Of a stretch of 64,000 nt of DNA, positions 30,130-30,870 are shown in pieces; within the stretch, counting starts at the first letter, position 1, and each line of letters starts with the position of its first letter. The DNA lies in contig CBDCOH010000002.1 of NCBI GenBank assembly GCA_965219685.1, forward strand, positions 608,001-672,000, read 5' to 3'. The notes beneath the pieces are model-generated. The model was given only the letters and a program-made list of their open reading frames with translations, was not told the origin of the DNA and searched no databases. The DNA is from Candidatus Spongiisociaceae bacterium (GTDB lineage Bacteria; Actinomycetota; Acidimicrobiia; Spongiisociales; Spongiisociaceae). The position numbers and the translations under genes are program-made.

Positions 30130-30870
30130 ATGGGGCGGGTGAAGTTCCGACGTCTGGTCTTGCGAGTTGTAGTCATCGGTGCCTTCGTGCTGGCGGCGTG
30201 CGGCGGCGAAGCCCAAGGACCGTCCGAAACGGCGGAGCCGGCCGCAACTCCGGTTACCACCGCGGTGGCGACGACCGCTGCCGCCTCAGGACCGACCTCG
30301 ACTTCCGCAGAACCCGCCGCCACGACCGAAGCCCCGGCGACAACCGTGGCGGACGTTCAGGCTCCGGAGTCGACCACAACCGCCGACCCGGTGGAGGAGG
30401 AGGTCGTCTCCACTACGGTGGCGGAAACGACCGTGGTTACGGAACCCGCAGCCGTTCCCGAGGGTCCACCTGTCCCGGCCGTTACCTTGGAACTGGACGA
30501 CGGAACCACCTTCGTATCCACCGAAGCAACGGGACCTGTGCTCTACCTGTTCTGGGCGGAGTGGTGACCGGCATGTCGACGGGAGTTGCCCGTCGTCGAC
30601 TACCTGGCGGGCGAGTACGCGGGCCGGGTGGATGTGATCGCGGTCGCCTGGGCTTCCACGTACGAGAAAACGGCATCTGCAGCCCGGGGATTCCTCACAT
30701 CCGGGGCTACTCGCTGGCTTCTCGATGAGGACGATTCCGTGTTCGCCGCCTTTGAGGTCAATTACCAGCCCGTAGGCGTGTTCGTCGTGGACGGAGTAGA
30801 GGTGAACCGTTGGTTGGGATCCATCCCCGAGGACGAACTCCGGCAGGCCTTCGAGACCGCCATAGCTTGA
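30130..30870 (+). CDS. Putative selenoprotein: lipoprotein TlpA/redoxin with UxxC active site (in-frame TGA 30565-30567)
   Basis: Lipobox LAAC, Thr/Ala/Pro/Glu-rich linker, then FWAEW-TGA-PACRRELP continuing in frame to 30870 with a Trx-fold remainder (VNYQP); SECIS-like hairpin just downstream. Confidence 0.8.
30577..30595 (+). promoter_or_regulatory. Candidate bacterial SECIS element
   Basis: CGACGGG-AGTTG-CCCGTCG hairpin; 16 nt between the UGA and the apical loop, with G at loop position 2. Confidence 0.65.

Follow-up and report, generated by a model that had tools for sequence, protein, structure and literature searches.

An in-frame TGA in a TlpA/ResA/DsbF-like lipoprotein gene shared across an order of Acidimicrobiia is almost certainly read as selenocysteine

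Described relatives and the encoded lipoprotein

Selenoproteins with a UxxC active site in a TlpA-like fold have been catalogued since 2005. Table 1 of PMC13188914 lists UxxC families for PF00578, PF08534, and cd02966 under the names "Prx-like thiol:disulfide oxidoreductase", "Thiol-disulfide isomerase-like", and "Redoxin" (UxxC), and these families go back to the Sargasso Sea and GOS surveys (PMC1088965, PMC2398784). The gene described here, which lies in a window of 64,000 nucleotides (the whole stretch of DNA that was analysed), represents a family that is a further member of this class, and because the class has been catalogued for so long its occurrence is of low surprise. Like the catalogued families it has one Sec in UxxC, a bacterial SECIS (bSECIS) element right after the UGA, and Cys homologues, and it shares a listed domain and motif (PF00578, PF08534, UPAC), the comparison having been made by domain and motif only. 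It differs from them in forming an order-wide orthologous group with the signature FWAEW-U-xx-C-xx-ELP and a [QN]P loop, in its lipoprotein signal and long tether, and in that Sec is the majority and probably the ancestral state. No NCBIfam model exceeded its cut-off for the 30 members tested (the scores are those of the first member, and the best E-values in the family are far weaker). The ResA-like WAxxUGC model, NF041054, gave 24.3 bits against a cut-off of 300, the motif here being UPAC and not UGC. The models for ResA (NF002854, 32.5 of 170 bits) and DsbE/CcmG (TIGR00385, 23.8 of 123.15 bits) likewise stayed below their cut-offs, the latter being a blunt test in this lineage, where the neighbouring ccmG-like gene also falls short (66 of 123). 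Selenocysteine in exported bacterial lipoproteins has also been described for SaoX and SaoC, but these have unrelated folds (an ABC substrate-binding and a CC-terminal protein, respectively) and belong to anaerobic Firmicutes (bioRxiv 10.1101/2022.07.06.499078). A literature search found no paper on the family or the order, and supplements such as that of deep-Sep (PMC12013277) may list members.

Among the nearest solved structures are those of exported actinobacterial TlpA-like proteins, DsbF (Rv1677, PDB 3ios) and DsbE/Mpt53 (1lu4). Both are counted among exported proteins (PMC3792642) and are described in PMC3853704 as acting in vitro as oxidants, with neither insulin reductase nor RNase isomerase activity. 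The AlphaFold2 model of the catalytic domain has a TlpA-like fold (pLDDT 96), and Foldseek placed M. tuberculosis DsbF first and Bacillus subtilis ResA next (TM 0.83-0.89), within an overall range of 0.76-0.89 for TlpA-like structures. DsbF, at a TM of 0.84 and 28% identity, was the best solved match, and it also came first in a profile search of solved structures (E 3e-17), although by a small margin over Streptococcus gordonii 5um7 (E 1e-15) and wild-type ResA (1.5e-13). It shares W-C-P-T-C-x-x-E-x-P-V-V, with a near-identical active-site helix, and the Gln before the cis-Pro position; DsbF and DsbE differ from the protein described here in having Cys instead of Sec and different gene neighbours, and the likeness is one of match rank and motifs, DsbF standing outside our tree. 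B. subtilis ResA, E. coli CcmG, and pneumococcal Etrx1/2 have the same fold (TM 0.80-0.89), a membrane-tethered extracytoplasmic CxxC, and a conserved Glu three residues past the second Cys, but they are only 18-24% identical, and the present gene does not share an operon with its pathway. The model and motifs thus place the predicted protein in the TlpA/ResA/DsbE-like thioredoxin-fold superfamily, which is recognised by a thioredoxin fold with an N-terminal beta-hairpin, an extra helix/strand insert, W-[CU]-x-x-C-x-x-E, and a Pro loop. Redoxin, AhpC-TSA, and Thioredoxin exceeded their Pfam cut-offs (PF00578, 32.6 bits against 26; PF08534, 36.1 bits against 26.6). The landmarks of the domain are U146-P-A-C149, Glu152, and Gln213-Pro214 at the usual cis-Pro position (Table 1).

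Table 1. Positions of the selenoprotein gene, its parts, and its neighbours in the window.
Feature	Position	Strand	Evidence
Predicted selenoprotein gene, TlpA/ResA/DsbF-like lipoprotein, 246 aa	30130..30870	+	Sequence, Pfam, AlphaFold2, Foldseek
Start codon ATG	30130	+
Alternative start codon GTG	30139	+
Predicted lipoprotein signal peptide (basic n-region, hydrophobic h-region, lipobox L-A-A-C)	30130..30201	+	Sequence
Lipobox LAAC, residues 21-24	30190..30201	+
Cys24, predicted lipidation site	30199..30201	+
Low-complexity Thr/Ala/Pro/Glu linker, about 85 aa	30202..30456	+	Sequence
Thioredoxin-fold (TlpA-like) catalytic domain	30457..30867	+	Invariant columns of family alignment, AlphaFold2, Foldseek
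TGA almost certainly read as selenocysteine, nucleophilic position	30565..30567	+	TGA 60, TGC 3 among 63 copies
Bacterial SECIS hairpin	30577..30595	+	7-bp stem, loop AGUUG, 16 nt after UGA, about -11.6 kcal/mol
Hairpin stem	30577..30583/30589..30595	+
Hairpin loop AGTTG	30584..30588	+
Terminal stop TGA	30868..30870	+
trpD, upstream co-directional neighbour, synteny control	29044..30078	+	TIGR01245, 369 bits, over cut-off
System I cluster: ccmA, ccmB, ccmC, ccmE, ccmF, ccmH, TPR protein, ccmG-like	30920..37415	-	NCBIfam/Pfam

The N-terminus carries the lipobox and the long Thr/Ala/Pro/Glu linker that the original prediction had read from this stretch. A lipobox-like motif (by a loose pattern) precedes the domain in 63/63 family copies, and lipobox and Sec are 54 to 292 aa apart in relatives. 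The genome encodes Lgt and LspA, the signal peptidase II, which together with the lipobox support an exported lipoprotein with predicted lipidation at Cys24. The broader proposal of a membrane-tethered Sec lipoprotein is in turn supported by the Sec machinery, the conserved TGA and hairpin, and the presence of lgt and lspA. Longer or fused forms were absent at E<=1e-15 among 8000 scored candidates from a collection of 5.8 billion sequences, which is weak evidence against their existence.

Predicted recoding of the active-site TGA

Gene callers split the gene into two ORFs, 30118-30567 and 30586-30870, which lie in a common frame with a single TGA as the sole internal stop. That these are one gene, with the TGA where the attacking Cys of a TlpA/ResA W-A-x-W-C-x-x-C motif belongs, was borne out by the continuous reading from the ATG and by the active site TTC TGG GCG GAG TGG TGA CCG GCA TGT, which translates as FWAEW-U-PAC with U146 and C149. 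The host genome (two contigs, 96.7% complete, 5.9% contamination) also possesses the machinery whose presence had been proposed as a check: selA and selB are adjacent, selD and the gene for tRNA-Sec are present, and all four score over curated cut-offs. The tRNA-Sec, with anticodon UCA, is the only UCA-anticodon tRNA among 51, and tRNA-Trp reads CCA. The selD gene itself holds an in-frame TGA (G-A-G-U-A-S-K; G000:C2:2564589-2565512 (-)). Sec machinery in another lineage of Acidimicrobiia was reported in 2026 (bioRxiv 10.64898/2026.04.03.716425). Translation of the UGA as another residue, be it Trp by a changed code or Cys by a special tRNA, is extremely improbable: nothing was found in its favour, and against it stand the TGA that terminates both the Sec gene and trpD, the tRNA complement, and the intact SelA and SelD.

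The TGA is conserved far beyond the window. It occupies the active-site codon in 33/33 family copies at 38-99% protein identity (the best 30 loci from 41 genomes searched, the unpublished genomes G039 and G265 being included in this tally and in that of selA), and the 63 distinct copies of the pooled loci L020-L096 comprise 60 with TGA and three with TGC at this codon. The terminal stops of the 33 copies vary (24 TGA, eight TAG, one TAA). A draw of 251 Acidimicrobiia genomes yielded 59 matches at E<=1e-20, and 57 were kept after two distant Cys paralogues of less than 80 bits (G248, G207) had been left out. All 57 belong to the order of the window, which we take to be the one named UBA5794 and which contributed 73 genomes to the draw; 54 have one TGA and three have none, the position of the TGA having been checked only in fetched loci. 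The family is confined to this one order of Acidimicrobiia, and the closest named records are likewise from Acidimicrobiia, including Ca. Spongiisociaceae and Ca. Spongiisocius. The selA gene was found in 53/54 TGA-form genomes and in 1/3 Cys-form genomes. The TGA-form genome G035 has tRNA-Sec, and selA and selB were not found in its 120-contig assembly. Among the Cys forms, selA, selB, selD, and tRNA-Sec were all not found in G133 and G095 (95-97% complete), and all four are present in G200.

Selection acts on both sides of the codon. Compared with 13 relatives of at least 72% identity, pN/pS amounts to 0.16 in the part that precedes the TGA and to 0.20 in the part that follows the hairpin. 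Cys149, between the TGA and the restart codon of the gene caller, is kept in 33/33 copies as TGT (21) or TGC (12), and since it lies before the restart codon and is retained with free synonymous change, only read-through explains its conservation. The UGA hence aligns to the catalytic Cys of homologues with both flanks conserved, as is expected of a bacterial selenoprotein, and the alternation of Cys and TGA that the original prediction had anticipated from an alignment is realised in the 60 TGA and three TGC copies. From a quick tree (97 rows, 142 columns, 45/94 forks open, P0021 excluded by a motif filter) only three features were read: that the family is a clade, that Cys copies nest within it, and that CcmG falls in a clade apart. 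The family formed one clade (SH-aLRT 100), and the Cys copies nest at several places among Sec copies, which points to a putatively ancestral Sec with repeated losses.

A nonsense pseudogene, a sequencing error, a TGA derived from a repeat, or two separate small genes would accord with the split made by gene callers, with the RefSeq record of a relative, WP_420613561.1, which holds just the C-terminal half as a 94-aa hypothetical protein, and with the status of GAGTGGTGA as a common repeat word in the genome. The conservation of the TGA in 60/63 copies, down to about 38% protein identity, and the purifying selection on both sides have already refuted these readings, which together retain a negligible probability. 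The C-terminal piece by itself has neither a Cys nor a signal peptide, which argues against two genes. Sequencing error had been named as what would overturn the recoding if reads showed TGC or TGT; the contigs of four public runs, one possibly the source of the window, list no other letter at 30565-30567. The runs covering the gene include one labelled as a sponge metagenome and one as a coral metagenome. The caveat concerning the heptamer repeat was right as a count (the chromosome contains 659 occurrences of GAGTGGTGA) and wrong as an explanation of the codon: a repeat origin was rejected, as all 33 copies retain the TGA, five of them within GAA-TGG-TGA. On the combined grounds of genome content and conservation, TGA 146 can with very high confidence be considered to be decoded as selenocysteine.

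Evidence at the RNA level comes from the hairpin. The 7-bp stem with loop AGTTG, exactly 16 nt past the TGA, is as originally described, and it fits the published bSECIS definition throughout: a loop of 3-9 nt (5 here), a stem of 4-16 bp (7), a spacing of 16-37 nt (16), a G in the first two loop positions, and an energy of at most -7.5 kcal/mol (-11.6; PMC13188914). The stability of the region in the single sequence shows no excess over shuffles (z 0.32, -0.15, -0.03), and 496 of 104,666 TGA triplets (0.5%; chromosome, six frames) are followed by at least 6/7 pairs in the same register with G second in the loop. Because a lone hairpin resembles shuffles and this background exists, the weight of evidence lies in conservation and not in the single sequence. 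In the 33 copies 98.3% of stem cells pair, so that the TGA and hairpin are both kept in close relatives, as had been demanded of a functional element, and 3/7 pairs are changed on both sides. The covariation score was reached by 0/500 shuffles, in a test that ignores relatedness and can be inflated by related sequences, and slid controls were all lower (nearest 0.167 vs 0.233). Synonymous divergence drops to 0.18 inside the hairpin from about 0.5 on either side (a suppression of about 2.7-fold), and the Glu-Leu within it is GAG-TTR in 33/33 copies vs 23/169 comparable sites in the genome's long open frames. Selection acts on the hairpin at the level of RNA, and the strongest control is natural: 6-7 of 7 pairs are retained in 58/60 TGA copies (4 in the remaining two, which are divergent paralogues), whereas the stem of the three Cys copies has decayed to 2, 3, and 4 of 7. 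Covarying Sec hairpins next to independent Cys revertants without a hairpin offer a clean natural test of the constraint on bacterial SECIS elements.

The gene is almost certainly a real selenoprotein gene that is routinely mis-annotated and that most related Acidimicrobiia share, as judged from these comparisons. The reading corrects a systematic annotation error, which in public records leaves a truncated lipoprotein and a 94-aa hypothetical protein. A genome-wide scan for TGA, a generic hairpin, and a motif returned 8699 candidates, 181 of them with a Cys motif and a spacing of at most 20 nt; the candidates lie mostly in non-coding frames, and this noisy scan was dropped as a definition of the selenoproteome.

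Gene neighbourhood and cytochrome c maturation

The Sec gene lies between trpD and a convergent cluster for System I cytochrome c maturation, in which the matches stay below the NCBIfam equivalog or subfamily cut-offs and CcmH exceeds that of Pfam. Actinomycetota are usually described with System II; in the order of the window, ccmE occurs in 100/101 genomes searched. The gap of 49 bp to the ccmG-like ORF, which ends at 30920, is as first noted. The two units are tail-to-tail and so are not co-transcribed. Neither a sigma-70-type promoter nor an intrinsic terminator was found in 28700-31200, so that a transcript shared with trpD is conceivable.

From this adjacency it had been suggested that the protein might supply reductant to cytochrome c maturation. 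Such a dedicated accessory reductant would be a second and faster enzyme of the CcmG type, holding the CxxCH motifs of apocytochromes, or CcmH, in the reduced state. Among 77 family-bearing genomes searched for ccmE and trpD, 50 have ccmE within 13 kb of the Sec gene, always convergent and in five families, 24 have it on another contig, and three have it far off on the same contig, so that it is near in 50/53 genomes in which both share a contig. In 24 of the 77 genomes ccmE is near and trpD is not, all 77 have ccmE, and ResA and CcmG are close structural matches of the Sec protein. The cluster has, however, its own ccmG-like oxidoreductase, a Cys form (WCLQC) that falls in a separate clade from the Sec family in the quick tree. 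The control gene trpD, for which there is no plausible functional tie to the Sec gene, is about as tightly linked (within 13 kb in 47/77 genomes), being closer and so less subject to losses by contig breaks. In the family f2, the Sec gene stays next to trpD in 10/10 genomes, and ccmE is never within 13 kb; it is on other contigs in eight and 430 and 920 kb off in two, and 3/3 loci read have his genes next and no ccm cluster. Moreover, 19/20 genomes of the order without a family member (best scores <80 bits) keep ccmE. A gene for CcmG/DsbE or ResA would be expected within the maturation operon and co-inherited with it; the Sec gene is neither. Conservation of synteny thus showed the adjacency to be old but no tighter than that of trpD and broken in f2. 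A supply of reductant to cytochrome c maturation is neither shown nor favoured; a role in the assembly is possible and weakly supported, and as a dedicated function we regard it as unlikely.

Read most simply, the order trpD - Sec gene - ccm - his is an old chromosomal neighbourhood that breaks on either side, and by a slight preference we take the position between trpD and ccm to be inherited gene order. In G157 a Cys TlpA-like lipoprotein gene, an Lgt-like gene, and fragments of ccmC and ccmE lie between hisIE and the Sec gene (L102:5382-7724); these fragments, without the rest of ccm, reflect either a rearrangement or an assembly error. Other families, too, have a TlpA-like gene next to hisIE.

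Proposed redox role and further candidate selenocysteine loci

The explanation that we prefer, with modest confidence, is a general thiol reductase or isomerase on the cell surface that is fed by CcdA and is not dedicated to any one pathway. SelB-GTP with Sec-tRNA(UCA) would bind the hairpin, and UGA 146 would, with hardly any doubt, yield Sec. The precursor would be exported, lipidated at Cys24 by Lgt, and then cleaved by LspA, leaving the thioredoxin-fold domain outside the membrane on a long flexible tether. By analogy with TlpA/ResA chemistry, the selenolate of Sec146 would attack a substrate disulfide (or an oxidised thiol), and Cys149 would resolve the mixed intermediate to form an internal Se-S bond. 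Recharging would most likely proceed via the single CcdA-type membrane protein of the genome, and the enzyme would keep surface and envelope thiols correctly paired. Against this reading, no redox partner linked to the Sec gene was found, and the one CcdA/DsbD-type gene lies at a distance of about 450 kb. In its favour, the W-U-x-x-C-x-x-E motif and the fold agree with those of the reductases ResA, CcmG, and Etrx. A partnership of the Etrx-MsrAB type is unsupported, as a motif scan, which can miss divergent copies, turned up no MsrA motif and just one MsrB-like protein, which has no obvious signal peptide. An order of uncultured Acidimicrobiia, some of them sponge-associated, almost certainly spends selenium on a surface thiol-redox enzyme.

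The genome holds a dsbB gene followed directly by a membrane-anchored Cys TlpA-like gene (HWCPAC; G000:C2:512830-514105 (+), L133:1363-2638), which likely form an oxidase pair. VKOR was not found in the genome. Because DsbB has this adjacent partner and no VKOR was found, the oxidising arm appears to be filled. A Se-S bond is in general more reducing than an S-S bond, and Sec normally lowers the potential. With the oxidising arm already provided with a partner and a Se-S bond usually favouring reduction, a general reductase/isomerase is ranked first. The Sec protein might instead be an oxidase or folding catalyst like the actinobacterial DsbE and DsbF, passing its Se-S bond to secreted proteins; Sec would then have been chosen because it is fast and resists over-oxidation. 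Among solved structures DsbF ranks first in both sequence and structural comparison and has the same Gln-Pro loop, other Sec/Cys lipoproteins with Y-Q-P exist in further actinobacterial lineages, and DsbE and DsbF fold reduced hirudin oxidatively (PMC3853704). Yet DsbB is already paired with a different protein, DsbF leads S. gordonii 5um7 and ResA by little, and the Y-Q-P groups are not joined into one supported clade. The usual lowering of the potential by Sec also speaks against an oxidase, which we consider improbable. The Sec/Cys pair on a DsbF/ResA-like scaffold provides a way to ask if selenium turns an extracytoplasmic oxidase into a reductase.

A more far-reaching combination is tentative and rather doubtful. 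The family would be the selenium version of DsbE/DsbF-type lipoproteins, with the Sec form ancestral and nearly fixed across the whole order. Its member here would be one of five exported UxxC TlpA-like proteins that constitute a selenium-based thiol-redox layer on the cell surface, and it would act as a specialised extracytoplasmic catalyst of folding (an oxidase/isomerase comparable to eukaryotic ER selenoproteins) or as a Sec-boosted feeder of System I, and not as another generic reductase.

The genome contains four further TlpA-like genes in which a TGA takes the place of the first Cys codon of CxxC. Three form a tandem trio (G000:C2:3584586-3588159 (-), L134), two with S-layer homology domains and one encoding a lipoprotein with a long Thr linker. 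The fourth is a fusion of RCC1 repeats, SLH, and UxxC of about 1000 codons (G000:C2:237168-240227 (-), L135). The downstream hairpins of these genes are weaker or differently spaced. At G000:C2:2675030 (-) (L136), a W-S-S-W-U-G-C motif with an in-frame TGA is followed after 20 nt by a 6-bp hairpin, and the locus has the appearance of a ResA-like selenoprotein gene of the UGC type.

Additional copies of the family also occur. Two tandem Sec copies were seen at one locus (L036, G014) and three at another (L039, G009), with lipobox-to-Sec distances of 59 to 292 aa and the TGA and hairpin kept in all. Genome G002 has two copies; that at the usual trpD-ccm site (L022/L051) is 73% identical to the window's and that elsewhere (L094) 88%, which suggests transfer or gene conversion between relatives. 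Distant lipoproteins with TGA at the same position occur in other actinobacterial families (L110, L113-L116, L118, L120, L123, L125, L132). They carry W-U-x-x-C-x-x-E-Q-P and Y-Q-P, are mixed with Cys copies, and form separate clades; L113 and L116 are from unpublished genomes, and G325 and G392 enter only this remark.

Elsewhere in the window, the 7-base unit TCACCAT/TCACCAC forms intergenic arrays at about 39790-40200, with shorter copies near 27680 and 28990. A tandem GGRGG-coding repeat at 21728-21950 lies within the C-terminal tail of polynucleotide phosphorylase.
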